A DNA stretch of 64,000 nucleotides from Squalus acanthias. Lineage: Eukaryota. The translations under genes and the position numbers were made by a program. Location: assembly GCA_030390025.1 (NCBI GenBank), contig CM059432.1:41604001-41668000 (forward strand), written 5' to 3'. Under the pieces are notes generated by a model, which searched no databases, was not told the DNA's origin, and saw only the letters and a list, made by a program, of their open reading frames with translations. Shown here piece by piece: positions 3,098 to 62,081 of this stretch. Position 1 is the first letter of the stretch; every line of letters begins with the position of its first letter.

Positions 3098-5905
3098 TCA
3101 TGTCCAAATTCCTGCCCGCTCCCCATAACCCTTAATTCCCTTTACTTCTAGGAAACTGTCTATTTCTGTTTTAAATTTATGTAATGATGTAGCTTCTACA
3201 GCTTTTTGGGGCAGCATATTCCATGGACCTACCACCCTCTGAGTGAAGTAGTTCCTTCTCATCTCAGTTTTGAAAGAGCAGCCCCTTATTCTAAGACTAT
3301 GGCCCCTAGTTCTAGTTTCACCCATCATCGGGAACATCCTCCCCGCAACCACCCGATCCAACCCTTTCACAATCTTATATGTTTCAATAAGATCGCCTCT
3401 CATTCTTCTGAACTCCAATGAGTAGAGTCCCAATCTACCCAACCTCTCCTCATATGTCCATCCCCTCATCCCCGGGATTAACCGAGTGAACCTTCTTTGT
3501 ACTGACTCGAGAGCAAGTATGTCTTTTCTTAAGTATGGACACCAAAACTGTATGCAGTATTCCAGGTGCGGTCTCACCAATACCCTGTACAACTGAAGCA
3601 ATACCTCCCTATTTTTATATTCTATCCCCCTAGCAATGAAAGCCAACATTCCATTGGCCTTCTTAATCACTTGCTGCACCTGCATACTAACCTTTTGAGT
3701 TTCGTGCACCAGGACCCCCAGATCCCTTTGTACTTCAGTACTTTCCAATTTCTTGCCATTAAGATAATAACTTGCTCTACTATTTTTCCTGCCAAAGTGC
3801 ATAACCTCACACTTTCCAGTATTGTATTCCATCTGCCAAATCTCTGCCCACTTACTTAGCCTGTCTATGTCCCCTTGCAGATTTTTTATGTCCTCCTCAC
3901 TCACTACTTTCCCTCCCATCTTAGTATCATCTGCAAACTTTGATATGTTACACTCGGTCCCCTCCTCCAAATCGTTAATATAGATTGTAAAGAGTTGGGG
4001 ACCCAGCACTGACCCCTGCGGAACACCACTAGTTACTGATTGCCAGTCTGAGAATGAACCATTTATCCCAACTCTCTGCCTTCTGTTAGATAACCAATCC
4101 TCTATCCATGCCAGAATATTACCCCCAATCCTGTGATTTTTTATCTTAAGCAATAATCTTCTGTGTGGCAACTTGTCAAATGCCTTTTGGAAGTCTAAAT
4201 ACACCACATCCCCTGGTTCCCCTTTATCCACCCTGTATATTACTTCCTCAAAGAACTCCAGCAAATTTGTCAAACATGACTTCCCCTTCATAAAACCATG
4301 CTGACTTTGTCCTATTAAATTATGATTATCCAAATGTCCCGTTACTGTCTCCTTAATAATGGACTCCAAAATTTTACCTACCACAGATGTTAGGCTAACC
4401 GGTCTATAGTTTCCAGCCTTCTGTCTACTGCCCTTTTTAAATAAGGGTGTTACATTAGCAGTTTTCCAGTCTGCCAGGATCTTTGCTGAGTCCAGGGAGT
4501 TTTGGAAAATTACCAATGCATCCACAATCCCTACCGCCACTTCCCTCAAGACCCTAGGATGTAAGCCATCAGGTCCAGGTGATTTATCCGCCTTGAGTCC
4601 CATTATTTTACCGAGTACCACTTCCTTAGTGATTTTGATCGTGTTTAGCTCCTCCCCTCCTATAGCCCCCTGTTTGTCCAGTGTTGGGATATTCTTAGTG
4701 TCCTCTACTGTAAAGACTGATACAAAATATCCATTCAGTGTATTTGCCATCTCCATATTTCCCACCATTAGTTTCCCGGTCTCATCCTCTAAGGGACCAA
4801 CATTTACTTTAGCCACCCTTTTTCTTTTTATATAACTATAAAAACTCTTACTATCTGTTTTTATATTTTTTGCTAATTTACTTTCATAATCTATCTTCCC
4901 TTTCTTAATCAATCTTTTTGTTATTTTTTGCTGTCTTTTAAAGTTTTCCCAATCCTCTATCCTCCCACTAGATTTGGCTACCTTATAAGCCCTTGTTTTT
5001 AGTCGAATACTATCCTTAATTTCTTTACTTAGCCACGGATGACTGTCTTTTATTTTACACCCTTTTCTTCTCAGTGGAATATATATTTTTTGGAAGTTGT
5101 AAAATAACTCCTTAAATGTACACCACTGATCATGTATCGTCTTACCCTTTAATCTATTTTCCCAATCCACTCTACTCAATTCCGCTCGCATACCTTCATA
5201 GTCTCCTTTATTCAAGCTTAGCACGCTTGTTTGAGATCCAACCTTCTCACCCTCTAATTGAATATAGAATTCAACCATGTTATGGTCACTCATTCCAGGG
5301 GGATCCTTTACTAAGACATTTTTAATTAATCCTGTCTCGTTACACAGGACCAGATCTAAGGTTGCTTGCCCCCTGGTCGGTTCAGTTACATACTGCTCAA
5401 GAAACCCATCCCTAATACACTCAATGAACTCATCCTCAAGGCAGCCCTGCCCAATTTGATTTGTCCAATTAATATGATAGTTAAAATCCCCCATAATTAA
5501 AGATGTTCCCTTATTACAAGCCTCAACTATTTCCTGATTGATACTCCGTCCAACAGAGTTGCAACTGTTCGGAGGCCTATAGACTACGCCCACTAGTGGT
5601 TTTTTCCCCTTATTATTCCTTATCTCCACCCAAACTGTTTCATTATCCTGATCTTTTGACCCAATATCATTTCTCTGTATTACAGTGATTCCTTCCTTTA
5701 TTAACATAGCCACCCCACCTCCCCTTCCTTCCTGCCTGTCCTTCCTGATCGTTAAATAACCTGGTATGTTTAATTCCCAGGCATTGTCAACCTGCAGCCA
5801 TGTTTCTGTAATGGCCACAAGATCATACCCATATGTAGTTATTTGTGCCATTAACTCATCTATTTTGTTACGAATGCTACGTGCATTCAGATAGAGAACT
5901 TTCAA
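3098..5905 (-). CDS. CR1 ORF2: APE endonuclease plus reverse transcriptase, uninterrupted 935 codons (true start uncertain)
   Basis: APE motifs YLNARSI, ITETW, VYRPP, GDFN, LDL, SDH; RT motifs KSPGPDG, NYRPVSL, QHGF, LDFQKAFD, GVPQGSVLGP, FADD. Confidence 0.93.
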   Translation of the reverse strand: MKVLYLNARSIRNKIDELMAQITTYGYDLVAITETWLQVDNAWELNIPGYLTIRKDRQEGRGGGVAMLIKEGITVIQRNDIGSKDQDNETVWVEIRNNKGKKPLVGVVYRPPNSCNSVGRSINQEIVEACNKGTSLIMGDFNYHINWTNQIGQGCLEDEFIECIRDGFLEQYVTEPTRGQATLDLVLCNETGLIKNVLVKDPPGMSDHNMVEFYIQLEGEKVGSQTSVLSLNKGDYEGMRAELSRVDWENRLKGKTIHDQWCTFKELFYNFQKIYIPLRRKGCKIKDSHPWLSKEIKDSIRLKTRAYKVAKSSGRIEDWENFKRQQKITKRLIKKGKIDYESKLAKNIKTDSKSFYSYIKRKRVAKVNVGPLEDETGKLMVGNMEMANTLNGYFVSVFTVEDTKNIPTLDKQGAIGGEELNTIKITKEVVLGKIMGLKADKSPGPDGLHPRVLREVAVGIVDALVIFQNSLDSAKILADWKTANVTPLFKKGSRQKAGNYRPVSLTSVVGKILESIIKETVTGHLDNHNLIGQSQHGFMKGKSCLTNLLEFFEEVIYRVDKGEPGDVVYLDFQKAFDKLPHRRLLLKIKNHRIGGNILAWIEDWLSNRRQRVGINGSFSDWQSVTSGVPQGSVLGPQLFTIYINDLEEGTECNISKFADDTKMGGKVVSEEDIKNLQGDIDRLSKWAEIWQMEYNTGKCEVMHFGRKNSRASYYLNGKKLESTEVQRDLGVLVHETQKVSMQVQQVIKKANGMLAFIARGIEYKNREVLLQLYRVLVRPHLEYCIQFWCPYLRKDILALESVQRRFTRLIPGMRGWTYEERLGRLGLYSLEFRRMRGDLIETYKIVKGLDRVVAGRMFPMMGETRTRGHSLRIRGCSFKTEMRRNYFTQRVVGPWNMLPQKAVEATSLHKFKTEIDSFLEVKGIKGYGERAGIWT

Positions 5906-5924
5906 ATATGTTTTGTGACACTTA

Positions 5925-6823
5925 GGGGTAAAAATTCAGTTGGTTGCGCCTCCCGTTAGCGCCTTAAGAGGGCGCTAATGGGGCGCAAAGCCGCTAACGC
6001 CCGGGCGCAGCGATGTTTGCTCCGCTCGGGAACTTAACTAGAGATTGTGCGGCGGCGCTAAACTTTACCGTTGCGACCACCTGCGCGCGCAGATTGTGAC
6101 GTCATTCCATGGTGCAACGCCCTTGTGGCGCCCCGGAGCGGAAATTGAGTGGCGCCCCCTGCCTTACCGCCTGGCGCATCCAACGACCAGAAGACTGGAA
6201 CGCTATCAATCGCTGTGGGGCTGGGGGGGGGGGGGCGCTATTTAAAGGGGGCCTCTTCCTGTCTTTTATTGTTGGTGGCATTTTTGAACTACGCATTCTG
6301 AGAGAGAGAGGGAGAGACTTCTGGAGAGATTCAACGTTGTGTGAAGGAGTTTTTGGGTACTGAGCAGCACTTTGCAGGTTCATTTTGATTTGCCATTCCT
6401 TGTATTGATTTAGCAGAGACTGTGGGAGCTGCACTCTGAGCTCTTTGCCTGGTATTCTCCATTGTTCTTTCCAGCACATTTGATGTGCAAGTCTCTCCAG
6501 GCCGAGATTCAAGGCTGCAATGAACAGGATGTGGATGGAAAGCAAGATTAACCATCCCCTTTAAGAACTGGCCCGTGCCATTGTGTGTGTGTTCCATTGC
6601 TGACTGACATTACATGAGCTTCGCCAGCGCTCTGAGTTAGCGCCTCACTCCTTGGCCTTTGCGCCTTAAGACAGGTGTGCAGCGCCTGATTTAGCGCTCC
6701 AGTCACCTCCCGGGGCGGTAAAAGTGAAGTTTCCAGTCAGTGCCGATAATTAGCGCCAGGCGCTAATATTTGCGTCCAGACGATATTTGCGCCCCAAATG
6801 GGGCGCGACCTAATTTTTACCCC
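5925..6823. mobile_element. PIF/Harbinger-type non-autonomous element (MITE)
   Basis: TIRs GGGGTAAAAATT / AATTTTTACCCC; TTA TSD at 5922-5924 and 6824-6826; CpG-rich subterminal GGCGC repeats. Confidence 0.9.
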
Positions 6824-17642: not shown

Positions 17643-19268
17643 TTAGTTTTCTGCATTATGCTTGTAATGTGTATTTATAACATGAGAATTAAACTGCACT
17701 ACTGTCACAGTTATATCATCTCTGTACATTCTTGCCAGTTCTTCAGGAAGACTTAGCATCTTGGACAATCGCTCATGATCAATAGCCCCAAACTCATTGT
17801 GACCAACTGCATGCCGTATAAGATGAGTTGCAGAATTTTGATCTTCAAACGCAGACGAAATGCGAGCTCTTCTCTCCATTAATAGGCCATGCATCTGACC
17901 AAGAGTCACTTTGTAACCCCCAACGGAAATAGGTTGCTGTAGGTGGACACCAGTTAGATGCTCCCCAACAATTCTCACAACTTCCTGTCTATGTAATATT
18001 TCCCACAGACCATCTGTGGCTAATACAAGGAATTTGTCCTGAGGCCTTAGTTTATGGTAAGTGATTTCAGGTTCAGCTGTTAGATATGGGGGAGTGTGAT
18101 AATTAGGTGGGATAAATTTTGTACATTCATTCTCATGTAACAGCTCTGGGCCAGACTCCAGTACCCGCTTCTGCAGATCTATGCTCCACTTGAATTTAAC
18201 ATCTCCAAAAGCTCTAAATGGCATTAGCAAGGCAAGCAGACGGTCTTGTTTAACAACAGTTTTTGCTTCAGATTTTGGGTGTTCAGATTTAACCCTTTCC
18301 ACTTCACTCTCATTCTGTGCATTGTGGTCATTGGACAGTGTGAGTGCAGACCAGGTTCCATCCTCTTCTTGAACACCAAGCACAGCTCTGCTGTCTCCAG
18401 TATTTGCAATGTGCAAGTCTACACCATCTATGTGTGCAACGCAAGCAGTTGCACCAGAAAATGCCACTCGCAACTGCCAATAATTGAGAAAGGAGTTACT
18501 ATTACCCACTTGAGCTTCCAATGAAATATCATTATCAAGTCTTTTGAATGAATTTATCAAAGCTTCCATTGTATCAGGTGTCTCCTCATTGTAGAGGTCA
18601 ATTAGCTCTTGCCAGTAGGTTCTTAGGCTATCAAAGTACATTTTCGAAGCCTCCTTACTGAAGTAGTCATTAGGATGTTTGTGCCACTGTAAAAGTGGCA
18701 ATACAACACTGCCATTTTCAACTGCATTCTCTATTTCCAATAAGGTTTCCTGATGTAGCAAAGCAACAGTAATATAGTAAAACAGTCGTTCGCTGACTGC
18801 CTGTGCACAGGCACACCCTGCATGTCCATCTATAACACTCAACAGCATGCCTCTGGTCTGCAGACAGGTAGCTGCACACCTTCGATCTTCAACTGGAGAA
18901 TTAGATGGCAACTGGTTAGTATCAAAACCCAGAACAGAACTAACATTCTTGCCATCAAATTCAGGTACCTTAAAACTGTACTCATTTGCCTTCAGGATGC
19001 TGTTAACTTGAGGAGGAGTAAGGCTGTAAAACTGTGCAACTGTGGTCCTGTAGTTCCTTAATTGGAAATGACCGAATGAATCTTCTGGATTGCCCCATCT
19101 GAGTAAGGATCTTGGAAAAGTCTTCTGCAGGGATCTGCCTGCTGTATGTCGACCGACTTGAGTAGATAGGCAACTATGGAGGATGTGATGGCGGCAAGCC
19201 GTGGCACATACCCTGCTTATCTCTCCATTTCTAAGTGCTGGAAACACAAGCTGCATTGGCACCAACAT
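17643..19268 (-). CDS. PDP1: Pyruvate dehydrogenase phosphatase catalytic subunit 1, mitochondrial (PP2C/PPM family), single coding exon, 541 aa
   Basis: Basic N-terminal presequence, then LTPPQVNSILKANEYSFKVPEFDGKN, EDRR, DGHAG, LQWHKHPNDYFSKEAS, ANTGDSRA, MPFRAFGD, LATDGLWE, RMYRDDIT, matching vertebrate PDP1 as I recall it. Acceptor TTTTGATAG|G puts the exon start at 19316. Confidence 0.96.
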   Translation of the reverse strand: MLVPMQLVFPALRNGEISRVCATACRHHILHSCLSTQVGRHTAGRSLQKTFPRSLLRWGNPEDSFGHFQLRNYRTTVAQFYSLTPPQVNSILKANEYSFKVPEFDGKNVSSVLGFDTNQLPSNSPVEDRRCAATCLQTRGMLLSVIDGHAGCACAQAVSERLFYYITVALLHQETLLEIENAVENGSVVLPLLQWHKHPNDYFSKEASKMYFDSLRTYWQELIDLYNEETPDTMEALINSFKRLDNDISLEAQVGNSNSFLNYWQLRVAFSGATACVAHIDGVDLHIANTGDSRAVLGVQEEDGTWSALTLSNDHNAQNESEVERVKSEHPKSEAKTVVKQDRLLALLMPFRAFGDVKFKWSIDLQKRVLESGPELLHENECTKFIPPNYHTPPYLTAEPEITYHKLRPQDKFLVLATDGLWEILHRQEVVRIVGEHLTGVHLQQPISVGGYKVTLGQMHGLLMERRARISSAFEDQNSATHLIRHAVGHNEFGAIDHERLSKMLSLPEELARMYRDDITVTVVQFNSHVINTHYKHNAEN

Positions 19269-19934
19269 TTCACCAGGCTAAAATGGTGTACAAAGAGACA
19301 AATTTTCCAGCATTTCCTATCAAAACAAGGGAAAAAAATGAATTAGCTCTTTGTTGTACCACGAATTAACCCATTACCCAAATGTGCAAAACAAAGTAAA
19401 AATACCTATTAAAAAATAGTTTTACATGGTTTAATTATTAAAACCATTACCCCGGAAAGCATTTTCACATTTGTTGAAAGGTTTGAGTACTGCAAGACAA
19501 TCAGATATTAATATATAATATACTAATAGCCGCTAGATTGAGCTTCACATTGAAGGAAAAGGTTATGCTTCCTGCAGCTATAGGTTTGTTTCACTTACAT
19601 CAGACATGTAACTAATCACTTAGGAAAGTTGATTTTTTTTAAAAGAGTGACTTCTCAAAAATGTATATTCATATTCAACGAAGCCAATGTGCATTTTATT
19701 GCTCAGTACTTGTACGAGGAGTACACAGAGAGAGGTGGATTTTAAAGAGAAAAACAGACAGCAGTATTCTAGCTGTTAAAACCCAATCCAACTAATACAA
19801 AGTGTCCCAAACCTCTTCCACCATGAATAAAATCATGTTTAGTAAAAATTAAAATCTTAAAGAATAAAGACTACTTCTCAGCAGTTTAATGAATGTCTTA
19901 ATAAAAATGTTTACCGAACTTTCAATTCCAAGCT

Positions 19935-44315: not shown

Positions 44316-44644
44316 GTAACTAATTGTAACACCGAAGTTCTGATTGGTCCCCTTGGAGGACAAGACACACCCAGCAGATTGTCTAGGATGTGTAATTAGA
44401 TCCTGCCTGCCTGAGTAATCAAGTACTTTGCAAAGTGTAATGTGATCCATTCATTGTGACAGCCAGCTCCAGCGCTCAACAGTGCTAACACTACTGCTTT
44501 CAGAGAAGAGGCAGGGCTCACCCTCCCGGGTTTGCAGCACTCGCACTGCTGAGTTCAGATAGGAAAGGGTGAGGCCATGGAGGGATTTTAACATAAGGAT
44601 GAGGATTTTAAAATCAAGGTGTTGGTGGACAATGTTTCCCCAAT

Positions 44645-44875
44645 ACAAAAGCAAAATACTACGGCTGCTGGAAATCTGAAATAAAAACAGAAAGTGCTGG
44701 AAATACTCAGCAGGTCAGGCAGCATCTGTGGAGAAACAGAGTTAACGTTTCAGGTCGGTGACCTTTCATCAGAACAGATCTGACGAAAGGTCACCGACCT
44801 GAAACGTTAACTCGGGTTCTCTCTCCAGAGATGTTGCCTGACCTGCTGAGTTTTTCCAGCACTTCATTTTTATTT
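44645..44875. mobile_element. Penelope pLTR hairpin insertion (family A) with hammerhead motifs on both strands
   Basis: Long inverted arms centred at about 44777; TSD CAATGTT(T/C)CCC at 44630-44640 and 44876-44886. Confidence 0.85.
44741..44775 (-). ncRNA. Minimal type-I hammerhead ribozyme motif (family A)
   Basis: GUU-CUGAUGA-A-AGGUC-ACC-GACCU-GAAA-CG-UU-AAC: core CUGANGA/GAAA, 5-bp helix II, 3-bp helix I, palindromic ACGU in place of helix III. Confidence 0.7.
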
Positions 44876-45544
44876 CAATGTTCCCCCTAATTTTTTTTTG
44901 GGTGCGCGGTCCCTTTAACAGGCTGCACGGGACCTTCAGACAGCTGCGCAGCTTAGCGAGCACAGGGGTGATGGGTGAATGGGACTTGCTGCGTGTTAGG
45001 ATACGTGCAGCAAATTTTGGATGAGCTCAAGTTTATTGAGGGTGGAATATGGGAGGCTGGCCAGGAGAACGTTGGAATAGTTGAGTCCGGCAAATAACAT
45101 ATAAATGTAATGTTATGCATGTTGTAGGACCAACACAGAATACGCTCTAATTTTTAAAATTTATTTATTGCCCATCCCTAATTGCTCGAGAGCATGGTAG
45201 TGAGCTACCTTCTTGAACTGCTGCGGGCGGGGGAGGAGAGGGCGAATGTGGTGTAGGTGTAAAGGGGGTGGGGGGTGGGGGGTGGAAGACCGTGATCCAG
45301 GCCTAACAAAGGGTGGGAGAATGTAATTTATCTGGATCACGTTCTTGCTCTCATCTACCCCACCCCTTCCTTTAGACCTGGATCACGTTCTTCCTCCTCC
45401 CCACTGTTCTCACTGTTCACTCCCAAACAAGTTTCTGACCTTCTCTCTCCAAGCTCCTGACCTCCTGCTCCCTCTCCAAACTCCTCTCGCCCCGTCCGAT
45501 CCCCTCTCTCTCTCCCCTCCCCCTCCGATCTCCTCCCTCTCTCC

Positions 45545-47500
45545 CTCCGATCCCCTCTTCGCCCCCCCCACTTCCTTCGATCCCCTCTTCGCCCCCCCCA
45601 CTTCCTTCGATCCCCTCTTCGCCCCCCCCACTTCCTTCGATCCCCTCTTCGCCCCCCCCACTTCCTTCGATCCCCTCTTCGCCCCCCCCACTTCCTTCGA
45701 TCTCCTCTTCGCCCCCCCCACTTCCTTCGATCTCCTCTTCGCCCCCCCCCACTTCCTTCGATCTCCTCTTCGCCCCCCCCCACTTCCTTCGATCTCCTCT
45801 TCGCCCCTCCACTTCCTTCGATCCCCTCTTCGCCCCCCCCACTTCCTTCGATCCCCTCTTCGCCCCCCCACTTCCTTCGATCCCCTCTTCGCCCCCCCAC
45901 TTCCTTCGATCCCCTCTTCGCCCCCCCACTTCCTTCGATCCCCTCTTCGCCCCCCCACTTCCTTCGATCCCCTCTTCGCCCCCCCCACTTCCTTCGATCC
46001 CCTCTTCGCCCCCCCACTTCCTTCGATCCCCTCTTCGCCCCCCCACTTCCTTCGATCCCCTCTTCGCCCCCCCACTTCCTTCGATCCCCTCTTCGCCCCC
46101 CCACTTCCTTCGATCCCCTCTTCGCCCCCCCACTTCCTTCGATCCCCTCTTCGCCCCCCCACTTCCTTCGATCCCCTCTTCGCCCCCCCACTTCCTTCGA
46201 TCCCCTCTTCGCCCCCCCACTTCCTTCGATCCCCTCTTCGCCCCCCCACTTCCTTCGATCCCCTCTTCGCCCCCCCACTTCCTTCGATCCCCTCTTCGCC
46301 CCCCCACTTCCTTCGATCCCCTCTTCGCCCCCCCACTTCCTTCGATCCCCTCCGCCCCCCCACTTCCTTCGATCCCCTCTTCGCCCCCCCACTTCCTTCG
46401 ATCCCCTCTTCGCCCCCCCACTTCCTTCGATCCCCTCTTCGCCCCCCCACTTCCTTCGATCCCCTCTTCGCCCCCCCACTTCCTTCGATCCCCTCTTCGC
46501 CCCCCCACTTCCTTCGATCCCCTCTTCGCCCCCCCACTTCCTTCGATCCCCTCTTCGCCCCCCCACTTCCTTCGATCCCCTCTTCGCCCCCCCACTTCCT
46601 TCGATCCCCTCTTCGCCCCCCCACTTCCTTCGATCCCCTCTTCGCCCCCCCACTTCCTTCGATCCCCTCTTCGCCCCCCCACTTCCTTCGATCCCCTCTT
46701 CGCCCCCCCACTTCCTTCGATCCCCTCTTCGCCCCCCCACTTCCTTCGATCCCCTCTTCGCCCCCCCACTTCCTTCGATCCCCTCTTCGCCCCCCCACTT
46801 CCTTCGATCCCCTCTTCGCCCCCCCACTTCCTTCGATCCCCTCTTCGCCCCCCCACTTCCTTCGATCCCCTCTTCGCCCCCCCACTTCCTTCGATCCCCT
46901 CTTCGCCCCCCCACTCCCTTCGATCCCCTCTTCGCCCCCCCACTCCCTTCGATCCCCTCTTCGCCCCCCCCACTCCCTTCGATCCCCTCTTCGCCCCCCC
47001 CACTTCCTTCGATCCCCTCTTCGCCCCCCCACTTCCTTCGATCCCCTCTTCGCCCCCCCACTTCCTTCGATCCCCTTCGCCCCCACTTCCTTCGATCCCC
47101 TCTTCGCCCCCCCCACTTCCTTCGATCCCCTCTTCGCCCCCCCCACTTCCTTCGATCCCCTCTTCGCCCCCCCCCACTTCCTTCGATCCCCTCTTCGCCC
47201 CCCCCCACTTCCTTCGATCTCCTCTTCGCCCCTCCACTTCCTTCGATCCCCTCTTCGCCCCCCCACTTCCTTCGATCCCCTCTTCGCCCCCCCACTTCCT
47301 TCGATCCCCTCTTCGCCCCCCCACTTCCTTCGATCCCCTCTTCGCCCCCCCCACTTCCTTCGATCCCCTCTTCGCCCCCCCACTTCCTTCGATCTCCTCT
47401 TCGCCCCCCCCACTTCCTTCGATCCCCTCTTCACCCCCCCCCCCCACTTCCTTCGATCCCCTCTTCACACCCCCCCCCTTTCTTCGATCCCCTCTTCGCC
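45545..47500. repeat. Minisatellite, about 29-30 bp unit ACTTCCTTCGATCCCCTCTTCG(C)7-9, roughly 65 copies
   Basis: Directly visible tandem array; the top strand is almost entirely pyrimidine. Confidence 0.97.
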
Positions 47501-50500
47501 ATCTGATTCCCTGACCTTCACCGCATGGAGCCATGGAAAGCGTTGTTGGGTACTGCACATGCGCAACCTGATGCAATTTTAACTTTGAGTTGCGCTGAAT
47601 TCTGGACCTGCCAGAGAAAACTGATGGCAATCAGGAGCGGTGCCAGAAGACACCCAGGAAGGTAAATTTTAATTATTTTTTATAATTTCCTTGTGGGCCT
47701 GGAGGAGCAGAAGGAGGGCTAGAAACAGCCTGCTTTGCAAACTCTGCTCACAGCTGATTATGTTTATGGTTTATGAAAGAGGGTACTTTCATACGGTTCT
47801 AAAGGAGTGACTGGAAAGGTTTGTTATAAAACATCAACGGACATTCAAATAGAAAGCACCAAGAATTCAGCGTCTAACAGTCACATAACTGAACAAAGAA
47901 CATCACCAGAAATCATTCCCAAAACACGATAGGAAATTACCCAAAGAAATCATTTTGCTGGTGGGATAAATAAATCCGTCTAGTTCAGGAGGACCCTCAA
48001 GTGCAGGCTGTGATCTGTAATGATTTACTCACCCAGTTATCAGCCAAGACTGCAGTGGAACCTGAGCCTCAGTATGTGCCTCTTGGCTCCGCTCGAAGGT
48101 GACTGGCTGAAGGTCAATCAATTTACCGGCATAAACACAGGCGAGCGCCCGGTACAAGCGAGGCCCCACCCGGCTCTGGGTCCCCTGCCCTTGGACAGTG
48201 GGGTCTTTCCCGGCAACAATTCAGGCAATCAAACACGTTCAAATTTGCCCTCACAAGTCACAGATCCGGAGCAGGTCAGGCTGGGTTTGGGTTCGTGTCT
48301 CCACTTGATCCGTAGCGCGGGTTGGAGTAGCGGGGAAGAAAGTACACAGGCACAAGTGGCAGGTGCGAAGCTCTACTTTTCTCCTGGGTTGCTCGCAGCA
48401 GCGTCCAGGAGGTTTATGTGTCACCCAGGAGAATCCTGGACAATCCAGGAGGGTTGGCAACTCTACCCGTCTTACACATTTTCTGAGAAAACCTTTAAGT
48501 ATATAGCAGTTAGCCTGTCACATAATGCCACCCACAGGCTCAATACCACTCAACATTTTTAATATATAACTGGCCAATCCCCTGTAGGTCGCTGGAGGAT
48601 GTCAGAGCAGTGTCGACGGCTAAAAGAAGCAGCTGTACTGATAGAACCAATGATGCAAGTACTTTAAATAAAAGGGGCTGGGAGAGAGTAGATTGGGTGG
48701 GGGAATCGGAAAGAGATGGGGAGGGGAGGAGATGGGGTGTGTGAAGAGGGTATGTGGAGGAATGGGGAAAAGAATCATAGAATAGTACTGCACAGGAGGA
48801 GGCCATTCTGTCCATCCAGTCTGCACCAGCTCTTTCGAAGAGCAATCCAGTTAGTCCCACTCCCCCGCTCTTTACCCATATCCCTGCAATTTTTTCTCCT
48901 TCAAGAATTTATCCATTTCCCTCTTGAAGGCTACTACTGAATCTGTATCCTATCAGGCAGTGCATTCTAAATTCTAACCACTCATAAGAACATAAGAAAT
49001 AGGAGCAGGAGTAGGCCATTCGGCCCTTTGAGCCTGCTCCGCCATTCAATGAGATCATGGCTGATCTTCTGCCTCAATTCCATTCACTGGCCTTATCGCC
49101 ATATCCCTTGAAGCCCTTACTAGTCAGAAATCTATCAACTTCTGTTTTGAATGTACCCAATGACTGAGCCTCCGCAGCCCTCTGGGGTAGAGAATTCCAA
49201 AGATTCACCACCCTCTGTGTGAAGAAATTTCTTCTCATCTCAGTCCTGAATGGCCTACCCTTTATCCTGAGGCTGTGGCCCCTGGTTCTAGACTCCCCAG
49301 CCAAGGGAAACATTCTCCCAGCATCCACCCTATCAAGCCCTGTAATCATTGTGTGTGCTTCAATGAGATCCCCTCTCATTCTTCTGAATTCAAGAGAATA
49401 CAGACCTAGTTTACTCAATCTCCTCTCATACGACAGTCCCGCCATCCCAGGAATCAATCTCGTGAACCTTCATTGCACTCCCTCTATGGCAAGTATATCT
49501 TTCCTTAGGTAAGGAGACCAAAATTGTACACAGTACTCCAGGTGTGGTCTCACCAAGGCCCTATATAATTGGAGTAAGACTTCTTTACTCCTGTATTCAA
49601 ATCCTCTTGTAATGAAGGCCAGCATACCATTTGCCTTCCTAATGGCTTGCTGCACCTGCACATTCACTTGCAGTGACTCATGTACAAGGACACCCAGGTC
49701 CCTTTGAGCATCTGCATTCCCCAATCTTCACCATTTAGGAAATACTCTGCCTTTCTGTTTTTTCTACCAAAGTGGATAACTTCACATTTATCCACATTAT
49801 ATTCCATCTGCCATGTTCTCGCCCACTCACTGAGCCTGTCGAGATCCCCTAGAAGCCTCTTCACAACTGACAGTGTAGGGGGTGGTGTGGTAGGGGTCAG
49901 CCTCACCTCTGACTCAGTGAGTGGTTCGAATCGCTCCCATGACCCTGGTTCTAGACCTTGGACTTATTTGGGGGTTGTGAACAAAGATGCAGTAGACAAC
50001 AGGTTTGGACGAAAGAGTTTTGACTTTATTAAAAAGAAAAAGGTAACAAACTTAAAACACTCTTAATGCTTAAACACAGGTTGGGGAATACATTGGTACA
50101 AGCGAGGGAAATAACCTTAGAAGAATACTTCACCCCTCCCAATCCCACTTCTGGACTCTGGAGAACCAGAGATAATGCTCACCAAACGAATCCTTGACAG
50201 TTGAGAGTTAGGGTTTAGAGTCTTTTGAGTAAAAAGTTTCGTAAGGCCCTTGTTGCCGCGAGGTGTCCGATGGTCACTGAGGCAGTCGCTCTGGTTTCTT
50301 GTGTGTTGGTCTGCTTGTGAAGTTGTCGGCCTTCTTTGTTGAACTTCTTGCTGTAACTCTGCCTCTGTTTAAACTGTCTTCTTCCGAGCTGTGGAACTGC
50401 CTTCTTGCAGAGATGTGGAAACTGCCTTCTGCCTGCTTGTCCTGAACTCTAACTCCAGCCCTGACTTCTTGCTGAAAAACAGGCTTTTCGATTGAACTGC

Positions 50501-55010: not shown

Positions 55011-55491
55011 CTTTTAAACATGTCTTTTAAAATGCCAAAACTTGGTTTTTGGTCTTAAATTCCTTATGTTAGGCCCAAATGCATTTTTATCACTCTGGGG
55101 TAGTTCCAAAGTCCTTTTTCCTTAGGTTTTGGGGATCTGCAAATTTTGGAAACCTTACAACTGCCACCTAGCTTTGAGTCATCAGCAAATTTGGAAATGT
55201 TACATTTAGTCCCCTCATCCAAATCATGATATAGATTGTGAATAGCTGGGGCCCAAGCACCGACCCTTGCGGTACCCCACTAGTCACAGCCTGCCATCCT
55301 GAAAAAGACCCGTTTATCCCTACTCTTTGTTTTCTGTCGGTTAACCAATTCTCAATCCATGCTAGTATATTACCCCCAATTCCATGTGCCCTAATTTTGT
55401 TCATGATGCGGAGATGCCGGTGTTGGACTGGGGTGGACAAAAGTGAGAAGTCGCACAACACCAGGTTATAGTCCAACAGTTTTATTTGAAA

Positions 55492-55528
55492 TCACAAGCT
55501 TTCGGAGCGCTGCTCCTTCGTCAGGTGA
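55492..55528 (-). ncRNA. Minimal type-I hammerhead ribozyme motif (family B)
   Basis: UCAC-CUGACGA-A-GGAGC-AGC-GCUCC-GAAA-GC-UU-GUGA. Confidence 0.75.
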
Positions 55529-55531
55529 AGT

Positions 55532-55569
55532 TCACCTGACGAAGGAGCAGCCGCTCCGAAAGCTTGTGA
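55532..55569 (+). ncRNA. Minimal type-I hammerhead ribozyme motif (family B)
   Basis: UCAC-CUGACGA-A-GGAGC-AGCC-GCUCC-GAAA-GC-UU-GUGA. Confidence 0.75.
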
Positions 55570-55786
55570 TTTCAAATAAAACTGTTGGACTATAACCTAA
55601 TTTTGTTCACCAACCTCTTGTGTGGGACCTTATCGAAGGCCTTCTGAAAATCCAACTACACCACATCTACCGGTTCCCCTTTGTCTACTCCACTAGTTAC
55701 ATCCTCAAAGAACTCCAATAGGTTTGTCAAACAGGACTTCCCTTTCATAAATCCATGTTGACTCTGCCCAATCTTACTATTAGTTT

Positions 55787-55964
55787 TGATGCGGAGATGC
55801 CGGTGTTGGACTGGGGTGGACAAAAATGAGAAGTCGCACAACACCAGGTTATAGTCCAACAGTTTTATTTGAAATTACGAGCTTTCGGAGCTGCTGCCCC
55901 TTTGTCAAGCTCGTAATTTCAAATAAAACTGTTGGACTATAACCTGGTGTTGTGCAACTTCTCA
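55787..55964. mobile_element. Penelope pLTR hairpin insertion (family B)
   Basis: 13-bp TSD TTACTATTAGTTT (55774-55786, 55965-55977); inverted arms; degenerate hammerhead. Confidence 0.88.
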
Positions 55965-57259
55965 TTACTATTAGTTTCTAAGTGCCCAGTTATTGCATCC
56001 TTTATAATAGATTCCAGCATTTTCCCAACTACTGATGTGAGGCTTAACAGGTCTGTAGTTCCTCATTTTCTCTCTCCCTCCTTTCTTAAGTAGCGGGGTT
56101 ATATTTGCTATCTCCAATCTGCAGGAACCGTTCCAGAATCTATAGAATTTTGGAAGATGACAACCAATGCGTCCACTATCCCGATGGCCACCTCTTTCAA
56201 AACCCTAGGATGTAGGTCATCCGGTCCTTGGGATTTATTGACTTTTAGTCCCATTAATTTTGCTAGTGCTGTTTTTTTACTAATAATAATTTCTTTAAGT
56301 TCCTCATTCTCGCCACACCCTTGGTTTTCTTGTATTTCTGGGAGATTTTTTGGGAGGACAGAAACAAAGTATTTATTTAATTTCTCTGCCATTTCCTCAT
56401 TCCCTATTATAAATTCTCCCGTCTCTGACTGTAAAGGACCTTTGCCAGTCTTTTCCTTTTCACATACCTATAGAAGCTTTTACAATCCGTTTTTATATTT
56501 TTCGCTAGTTTGTGCTCATATTCCATTTTCCCCTTTCTTTATCAATTTCTTGGTCCCCCTTTGCTGATTTCTAAAAAGATCCCAATCCTCAGGCTGACCG
56601 CTTTTTCTGGCAACTTTATAAGCTTCCTGGCAACTATATAAGCTTCCTCATTGTGTAAATACGTTTTTCCTCCTGTTGCCTCTGGTTCTTTTGCCAATCA
56701 CCTTAAATCTGTGCCCTCTCATCAACCCTTCAGCCATTGGAAACAGTTTCTCTTTATTTACTCTATCGAAACCCTTCGTGATTTTAAACACCTCTATCAA
56801 ATCTCCTCCTTCTCTGCTCCAAGGAACAATCTCAGCTTCTCTAGTCTATCCATGTAACTGTAATCCCCCATATCCGCAGCTCACTGGTGGCATGTTAATG
56901 AGGCCCTGGCCTCAAAATGGCTTGGGATTCACACCAGCACCAACGGGCGGGCAGAGTTGCTGCTCTGCCGACTTTGTCCCCCTTTTGGGCGCTAACTGAA
57001 AATTGCCCCCACTGAATTTAACACAAAAAAAAAATCAATCAATGGATAAAGTCCTGGTGACAGAATAGTTTTTTTTTCCATGTATGGTGCACTGGATGCT
57101 TTTCTATACATTTAAATTAAGGAACATTTGTTATGTGAAAGATTCATAACATGAAGGTTACATACCAAGATTTGGAACAATGGTGAACTGCTGGCATAGG
57201 GCATAAGTGTAATGATCCAAGATTTAGTTGAGGATCCAAAAGCAATTTATGCTCTAGAA

Positions 57260-58634: not shown

Positions 58635-59075
58635 CTGTACACTGACCGACACCCAGCTCTACCTTTCCACTGCCTCTCTCAACACTGAGAGGTCGCACAA
58701 CACCAGGTTATAGTCCAACAGTTTTATTTAAAATCACAAGCTTTCGGAGCTATCGATCGCCCCTTCCTCAGGTGCATCATGATCTCTCAACACTGCCTTT
58801 GTGTTGTCAGATTGTTCGTCTGACATCCAATCCTGGATCAGCCAAAAATTCCTCCAATTAGGAATACCTAAGCCATTGTTTTCAGCCCCACCACAAACTT
58901 CATTCCTTGGCCACCGATTCCTTCTCTGTTCCCTGGCCACTATCTCAGATTTATCCAAATGATTTGCCACCGCAGTATCCCTGAACTGAGCTTCCAACTC
59001 CATAATCCTCTCCATCACAAAGACCACCCATTTCCACCTCTAACATTCCTCTCTCTGCTCCTGCTTCAGCCCACC
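58635..59075 (+). mobile_element. L2-like LINE RT remnant
   Basis: Degenerate YADDTQLYLST and LSDCSSDIQSWISQKFLQL-like sequence. Confidence 0.6.
58688..58782 (-). mobile_element. Short Penelope pLTR insertion (family B) with hammerhead at 58735-58774
   Basis: 13-bp TSD TCTCTCAACACTG (58675-58687, 58783-58795); CAC-CUGAGGA-A-GGGGC-GAUCGAUA-GCUCC-GAAA-GC-UU-GUG. Confidence 0.85.
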
Positions 59076-61690: not shown

Positions 61691-61700
61691 TGAAAAGTCA

Positions 61701-61855
61701 AAAGTGAGAAGTCGCACAACAGCAGGTTATAGTCCAACAGTTTTATTTGAAATCACAAGCTTTCGGAGCTGCTGACGAAGGAGCAGCGCTCAGAAAGCTT
61801 GTGATTTCAAATAAAACTGTTGGACTATAACCTGGTGTTGTGCGACTTCTCACTT
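61701..61855. mobile_element. Penelope pLTR hairpin insertion (family B)
   Basis: Near-perfect inverted arms; 14-bp TSD TTGTTGAAAAGTCA (61687-61700, 61856-61869); hammerhead core CTGACGA..GAAAGCTTGTG on +. Confidence 0.88.
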
Positions 61856-62081
61856 TTGTTGAAAAGTCAGATGGGACATTGTTTGCCCGGGGACACAGTG
61901 TCTAATCTGGCGACCGTTCCCGAAGCAGTTCTATAATGAAGACTCCCAATCTCAGTGCTGTAGAAACCATCCTGTTTATATTGCACTTTAAAACATAAAC
62001 AATTATTTTAAAGTTGATGTTTACAGTTGCATAGCTGGCAGCAGTACATTTCCCAATGTTACCTCTCCAGTGCTTTGAGGT

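Follow-up and report, generated by a model that had tools for sequence, protein, structure and literature searches.

The stretch of DNA analysed here (the window) comprises 64,000 nucleotides of the Squalus acanthias genome. At positions 55404–55595 it carries an insert of 192 bp between two copies of a TSD, made of two head-to-head arms with one minimal hammerhead per strand. The insert and its host are composed as follows:

55390..55403, plus strand: left copy of the TSD, 14 bp; its last 2 nt also match the element at the start codon
55596..55609, plus strand: right copy of the TSD
55404..55531, minus strand: long arm, 128 nt; it begins at the A of 55531, the putative transcription start, takes in the hammerhead and stops just short of the ORF start codon (3' site B)
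55404..55442, minus strand: tail spanning the interval from 3' end site A to site B; only one arm has it
55492..55528, minus strand: minimal type-I hammerhead; loop II has 3 nt, and cleavage is predicted between 55496 and 55495
55529..55531, no strand: head-to-head junction with a single T/A common to both arms, an uncommon class (3/66 loci)
55532..55569, plus strand: minimal type-I hammerhead; loop II has 4 nt, and cleavage is predicted between 55565 and 55566
55531..55598, plus strand: short arm, 64–67 nt, ending ~20 nt before site A would normally be reached and overlapping the target by 3 nt
55157..56623, minus strand: decayed LINE ORF2 that hosts the insert (tblastn against the window's own LINE ORF at 3098–5935), interrupted by the insertions at 55404 and 55787

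The host LINE is one that we take to be CR1-like. An earlier sequence-only reading had proposed a two-arm insert with a TSD and a motif on each strand, and both motifs lie where it placed them, with a TSD of 14 bp. Its insert size of 194 bp has to be corrected to the 192 bp between the copies; its TSD range of 11–14 bp includes the length found, and the range itself arises because the element also matches the target at both edges, by 2 nt (left) and 3 nt (right). The empty-site form was found in contigs from two public runs, where 206 nt are skipped and 14 letters are common to both edges. The insert had also been called palindromic. Head-to-head arms are indeed present, but they are not symmetric: the minus arm measures 128 nt and the plus arm 64–67 nt, positions 55404–55463 are unpaired by the other arm, and loop II reads AGC in one arm and AGCC in the other. 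A one-sided tail between the two 3' sites has already been described (in passages of PMC8557442 and PMC11167929). Both motifs hold stem I, CUGACGA, a bulged A, stem II, GAAA, GC-UU and GUGA (minus 55528–55492, plus 55532–55569). An Rfam scan of the insert matched no hammerhead family. The sole Rfam match, MIR841, is a generic hairpin microRNA model that scored 65.8 bits against a 200-bit cut-off, and it was rejected.

Related pieces lie elsewhere in the window:

55787..55964, no strand: second, independent head-to-head insertion of the same PLE (Penelope-like element) family, with a 13-bp TSD; neither hammerhead is complete
61699–61859: palindrome of the same PLE family, one hammerhead truncated and the other mutated
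58680–58774: solo arm of a younger subfamily, beginning at stem I
1–86: arm of the same PLE family, cut off by the window edge

The insertions at 55404 and 55787 are 190 bp apart within one LINE ORF2. LINE-like flanks were also seen at many of the loci fetched from the genome (L005, L006, L009, L010 and others), in a raw tally. At 44642–44875 there is a head-to-head insertion of a second, sequence-unrelated Penelope-like family, again with a minimal hammerhead per strand. It has a different stem III palindrome, a one-arm tail and a 12-bp near-duplication at 44630 and 44876, and is alike in design. It may also be noted that the minus strand holds one long open frame at 17643–19277, presumably resembling pyruvate dehydrogenase phosphatase, and that 45300–47650 (~2.3 kb) is made up of short tandem repeats rich in pyrimidines and has a strong GC skew.

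A near-intact parent copy (L046) was found in the genome, organized as pLTR-ORF-pLTR with a 2.9-kb inverted copy. Its ORF, whose frame shifts near the end, gave an RVT_1 match above the cut-off (E 2.2e-9). The GIY-YIG match was weak (PF01541, E 7.5e-4, 20.2 bits against a cut-off of 22.6); in the translation, nevertheless, the VVY and YIG motifs enclose two cysteines, and two histidines follow (CCHH). A C-x4-C-x2-C linker is present in the translations of L046 and of a further copy, L047, and a CX2-5CxxC linker before the endonuclease is given in the available text of PMC8557442 for the Neptune and Nematis clades. The family shows the hallmarks of EN+ PLEs (pLTRs, an inverted 5'-truncated copy, a one-sided tail and a TSD), and the long arm of the window insert stops at the start codon matching the L046 ORF. 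Judged by these sequence features, the insert is the 5' stub of an EN+ Penelope-like element of the Neptune/Nematis type. The Penelope origin that had been proposed for it is thus borne out by the RT, the GIY-YIG domain with its inner cysteines and the pLTR architecture of the parent; the proposal that an ORF-less insert was placed, with its TSD, by the element's enzyme also agrees with the sequences.

The 27-nt arm core has 47,397 exact matches in the 3.7 Gb genome. For an unbiased sample, 93 of the 100 matches listed first, mostly on the first contig, were examined with their surrounding DNA; five extra loci entered the long-arm set and one further tally only. The sample held 105 arms, forming 38 head-to-head pairs with a spacing of 32 nt to ~3 kb. 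Seventeen of these pairs were tiny and only 7–8 kept both hammerheads whole, the others being cut into the motif or reaching ~3 kb. Hence, the window insert represents the short end of a continuum. When exact patterns for this subfamily were searched genome-wide, both hammerhead 5' halves were found head to head, 0–12 nt apart, at 1,236 loci, and the reversed-pattern control gave 0, so that the arrangement is not due to chance. The younger subfamily contributed 542 loci with the two 5' halves at most 12 nt apart. For closer analysis 66 palindromes were parsed, namely the window locus, the first 50 and the first 15 listed; a broken or overly short arm excluded 4 of them from the end counts and 6 from the arm alignment. 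These loci were mostly picked by exact patterns and mostly from the first contig, and they favour young copies. A TSD was called in 52 loci, and its length was 12–13 bp in 41 of them.

The 3' ends of the arms fell at two sites, about +78 to +91 (A) and +116 to +136 (B) counted from C3. One arm ended at A and one at B in 59 of 62 loci, compared with 31 expected if the two were independent (p 8e-15). Among the 105 arms of the unbiased sample, 22 had 5' ends at −9 to −4 from C3, 7 at −18 to −10 and 21 at −3 to +27. The mode, −7, is the A of an initiator-like motif. Ends called at −57 to −68 were partly artefacts of a short reference and were pooled as long. Genome-wide, junctions of 0–12 nt (1,236 loci) exceeded those of 13–42 nt (510 loci). 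A second cluster of 5' ends, ~10 nt upstream at −16/−17 from C3, includes the 5' pLTR of L046 (L046:3578) and may mark an alternative start site.

In 53/53 long arms, which had been chosen for a TATA-like run within a 40-nt range, a TATA-like box precedes the arm start by 30–34 nt and is external to the insert. The initiator-like motif follows the TATA-like run in the long arms, and the insert is without the TATA part. The same two motifs are reported for rotifer pLTRs in the accessible part of PMC3846280.

Of 106 arms in this subfamily, 65 had G as the base preceding the start A, 28 had C, 7 had A and 6 had T; of 22 arms in the younger one, 9 had G, 9 had T and 4 had C. The template base at this position is C or T, not G. 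From the sequences, we read this G as a copied cap, a reading weakened by the G-rich partner arm and by picking loci with exact patterns. The two commonest junctions (16/66 and 15/66) are those where the terminal C can pair into the partner, and the T:A-only class, to which the window locus belongs, accounts for 3/66. The start was kept by both arms in 18 of 59 loci, by the long arm alone in 28 and by the short arm alone in 9.

Two other origins for the 5' ends were considered and rejected. Stubs made from cleaved RNA would end at the predicted cut site, where 0/51 ends fell exactly and 1 within 2 nt. For a splice acceptor at stem I, as in the D. virilis case, the aligned long arms have no AG immediately ahead of the cluster of ends.

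Both arms of the window insert show the features of the minimal type-I hammerhead (CUGANGA, GAAA, NUH, a bulged base, G10.1-C11.1 and the palindromic 15.2–16.2), and the earlier description of a minimal type-I motif with a palindromic stem III region therefore stands, its core and its 15.2–16.2 features being present in both. Across 90 arms N7 varied, H17 was U or C, and 11 core sites showed 9 changes in 990, of which 6 were U4C. In stems I and II of 19 hand-picked variants, 97.9% of cells were paired and 6 cells were changed on both sides, values reached by 0/500 shuffles; the pairs with a two-sided change numbered 2, compared with 1.2 in shuffles (135/500 match). N7 and loop II vary among these variants, and the core is kept. 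Since the 19 rows are related, this covariation gives moderate support for selection, which would act on the hammerhead in the active lineage and not at the window locus. Copies with the U4C core (L061, L084, L023, L045 and L085), some with a compensated stem II pair, apparently carry an inherited variant.

Loop II is where the arms most often disagree. Genome-wide, 1,636 pairs in this subfamily were AGC/AGC, 299 AGC/AGCC and 138 AGCC/AGCC, while random pairing predicts 1,538, 495 and 40; an AGC partner was present for 52% of the AGCC arms. One-base loop indels separated 12 of 47 arm pairs, and other indels were near absent. An AAAGC background occurred in both arms at 12/20 mixed loci, compared with 0/20 double-AGCC loci (p 4.5e-5), and the extra loop base of the 20 mixed loci was on the long arm in 12 and on the short arm in 8. 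Age was considered as a cause of the loop mismatch and rejected: mixed loci had 0.64 other differences per locus and the remaining loci 0.77 (14 and 31 loci, L104 and L117 excluded; p=0.78, a weak test). In the younger subfamily loop II is 4–9 nt long, with variants one base apart and flanks nearly fixed (L046, L047, L068, L060, L020). One arm of L117 combines the core of one subfamily with the loop II of the other, a sequence combination that suggests template switching inside the ribozyme.

The remaining markers agreed between arms. Two flanking markers were discordant in 2/47 and 0/16 pairs, against 50% and 43% expected, and the loop types of the younger subfamily in 0/13. This agreement from arm to arm points to one source RNA. 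Recurrent gain of one base while one arm is being copied would then be the simplest reading of the loop II differences; they may otherwise come from two RNAs of one lineage being paired at random, or from a later hot spot in the DNA.

The insert is a promoter-less stub of an EN+ PLE. On the comparison of copies described above, we consider it likely that it formed when reverse transcription was primed by both nicked strands on a single RNA whose 5' end had not been cleaved. This scheme builds on the observed parent element, the TSD, the rule of one long and one short arm, the clustering of 5' ends and the diversity of junctions, and from these we infer the following steps. Transcription of the pLTR would begin at a TATA/initiator start that precedes the core by 7 nt, making the ribozyme the first 45 nt of a capped RNA. 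The endonuclease would make a staggered cut with the nicks 12–13 nt apart. One 3'-OH would prime at site B, at the start codon, and the other at site A, ~40 nt upstream, a few matching bases helping. Both cDNAs would run off the cap, often with one C gained, and their 3' ends would join through 1–2 matching bases, usually long onto short, followed by fill-in. The longer inverted copies would result from the same process when the copied RNA extends further upstream. The two hammerheads would be passengers in the product, both being retained because the RNA starts just before them and stayed uncleaved. Alternatively, the fixed 3' ends could come from endonuclease cutting of an intermediate.

Some observations do not fit this scheme. 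The window locus is itself atypical, in that its short arm ends at +62 and not at site A, and its junction lies outside the cap class. The scheme does not account for the −16/−17 group of 5' ends. The arms differ at several inherited markers in L075, L063, L091, L107, L117 and L173, which speaks against one template there; for these six loci the sequences would require two templates or later conversion. A literature search over openly accessible main texts showed no paper linking the head-to-head junctions of PLEs with the cap or with start sites coupled to a strand.

A bolder form of the scheme is offered tentatively, as somewhat less than an even chance. An RT dimer would make two passes over the same capped RNA, which stayed uncleaved, starting from a separate fixed site for each cut strand, would jump from the cap to the other cDNA, and would add a base at the 3' edge of loop II in about 1 of 10 arms. 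If this is true, Penelope integration has left a fossil record in the stubs, antisense self-priming would be replaced as the model for head-to-head repeats of PLEs, and the extreme variability reported for PLE hammerheads would be explained.

The alternative that fares best is double priming on two joined RNAs, possibly held together through the self-complementary stem III, so that each arm derives from its own RNA. Such an origin would suit the frequent difference in loop II (299 mixed loci, with AGC partners for 52% of the AGCC arms) and the loci that differ at more than one inherited marker, and it would be in keeping with a proposal in the available text of PMC4209133 that minimal hammerheads act as dimers and with the dimer predicted for the PLE protein in that of PMC11167929. 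Random pairing, however, predicts 495 mixed and 40 AGCC/AGCC loci, not 299 and 138; two other markers are nearly always concordant, as are the loops of the younger subfamily, and two RNAs alone do not explain the strict long/short rule. We regard this route as unlikely for the family in general, and it probably accounts for a minority of loci.

A single priming event, after which the first cDNA folds back and is DNA-copied into the second arm, would also give markers mostly common to both arms, and would suit a full 5' end that is more often on the long arm (28 loci, compared with 9). The terminal base on both arms (18/59) or on the short arm alone (9/59) is impossible by such copying, and the extra loop base is on the long arm in 12/20 mixed loci. 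The steric limit of a hairpin loop is ~3 nt, and the two commonest junctions would require loops of 2 and 1 nt. Folding back is thus improbable.

The sequence-only reading had interpreted the insert as an ORF-less ribozyme unit that is transcribed and mobilised whole in trans, and that acts as a two-way cleavage or dsRNA module. More than 1,200 loci do retain both hammerhead 5' halves, compensatory changes in the motif occur across subfamilies, and the hairpin, if read through, is predicted at about −130 to −150 kcal/mol. The copies nevertheless do not behave as descendants of one unit. The 62 loci with both ends callable showed 58 distinct junction/end signatures, and the exact 54-nt centre of the window insert was found at one other locus only, where ends and flanks differ. 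With nearly all signatures distinct and the TATA-like box outside the insert, the palindromes are not copied as units, and mobilisation of the unit in trans was not upheld. In the unbiased sample, moreover, the tiny pairs with both motifs whole were only the 7–8 of 38 mentioned above, and the covariation is a property of the active lineage, not of the window locus. After insertion, core decay was no slower than that of the flank: among inserted palindromes, 3 of 640 core sites and 14 of 1,920 flank sites had changed (p=0.59, at low power).

Folding predictions bear on the proposed cleavage module. For a single arm, the predicted pair probability of stems I and II is 0.8–1.0. For read-through RNA of either strand the predicted equilibrium pair probability of the same stems is 0.0, the long hairpin being predicted to remove both ribozyme folds; transcription of the site would give a long dsRNA hairpin. 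Minimal hammerheads are reported, in a review passage, to cleave weakly and as dimers, and the Anolis hammerhead requires the protein of its element according to the available text of PMC11167929. From the predicted loss of the fold, together with weak or dimeric cleavage and the need for a protein in Anolis, a bidirectional cleavage module is unlikely. The claim of such a module is not supported by the modelled pairing in both strands or by a core that decays like the flank. The reading as a ribozyme unit is largely refuted, and we give it very little probability.

For head-to-head PLE palindromes a published proposal, made on rotifer elements (accessible part of PMC3846280), is that an antisense transcript primes itself. 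This would suit a TATA-like run readable both ways, but it predicts neither a junction pinned to the sense start with a cap-like G nor outer ends at two sense-RNA start sites (found in vitro), and is scarcely credible here.

The window locus itself is ordinary, one among tens of thousands of dead stubs, and its value lies in the statistics of the family. The results bear on two questions, how PLE head-to-head repeats form and what role PLE hammerheads play. The copies predict a start at −7, read-through of the cap, strict A/B pairing, an uncleaved template and an error hot spot in loop II. They also carry a warning that paired opposite-strand hammerheads in such genomes are integration products and not a new ribozyme device. 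Thousands of perfect hairpins of 60–130 bp could, where read through, add to the dsRNA load of the host.

In the twin priming of L1, both cut strands prime on one RNA, giving an inversion flanked by a TSD. The L1 cDNAs cover adjacent parts of the RNA, whereas those of the PLE stub cover the same part, and the RNA must therefore be read twice.

The inverted-pLTR insertions of Neptune and Nematis, as described in the available text of PMC8557442 and PMC3846280, are alike in having an inverted 5'-truncated copy at the 5' end, a one-sided tail of 30–40 bp, a TSD, a pLTR hammerhead, and TATA and initiator-like motifs. The dogfish stub differs from them in holding the 5' UTR alone on both arms and in junctions that cluster at the putative start. 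The explanation given for the rotifer elements (PMC3846280, in the same passages), antisense self-priming, does not fit the Squalus acanthias copies.

The closest in vitro counterpart is the Anolis Poseidon element PAc. In the portion of PMC11167929 that describes it, nicks and their extension occur on both strands, the tail is delimited by two internal start sites, RNA that has not been cleaved serves as the main template, and RNA ends at the cut site are absent. PAc belongs to a different clade, and its start codon lies inside the ribozyme, whereas here it lies ~90 nt after it. That portion accounts neither for head-to-head products nor for a link between each strand and its own site, and it reports that no difference in start site was seen between the strands.

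The metazoan PLE hammerheads of PMC4209133 share the short stem I, the bulged base before stem II, G10.1-C11.1 and the palindromic 15.2–16.2. The passages available from that work report high motif variability and dual motifs on opposite strands 100–700 bp apart, attributed to truncated PLEs. In contrast, the motifs here are 3 nt apart and fully paired to each other, and the variability resides mainly in loop II, often unlike between the arms of one insertion. The non-LTR retrozymes (bioRxiv 10.64898/2026.07.22.740005, in the text available) are likewise ORF-less and PLE-derived with a type-I hammerhead. They are, however, head-to-tail tandem repeats with a ribozyme per unit, whereas the window insert is a single inverted pair, rebuilt at each site, in place of at least two head-to-tail units with a hammerhead each. 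Further background is found in portions of PMC2377424 and PMC6765202. The architecture of the stub is, in sum, already published, and the mechanistic clues come from the statistics of its copies.
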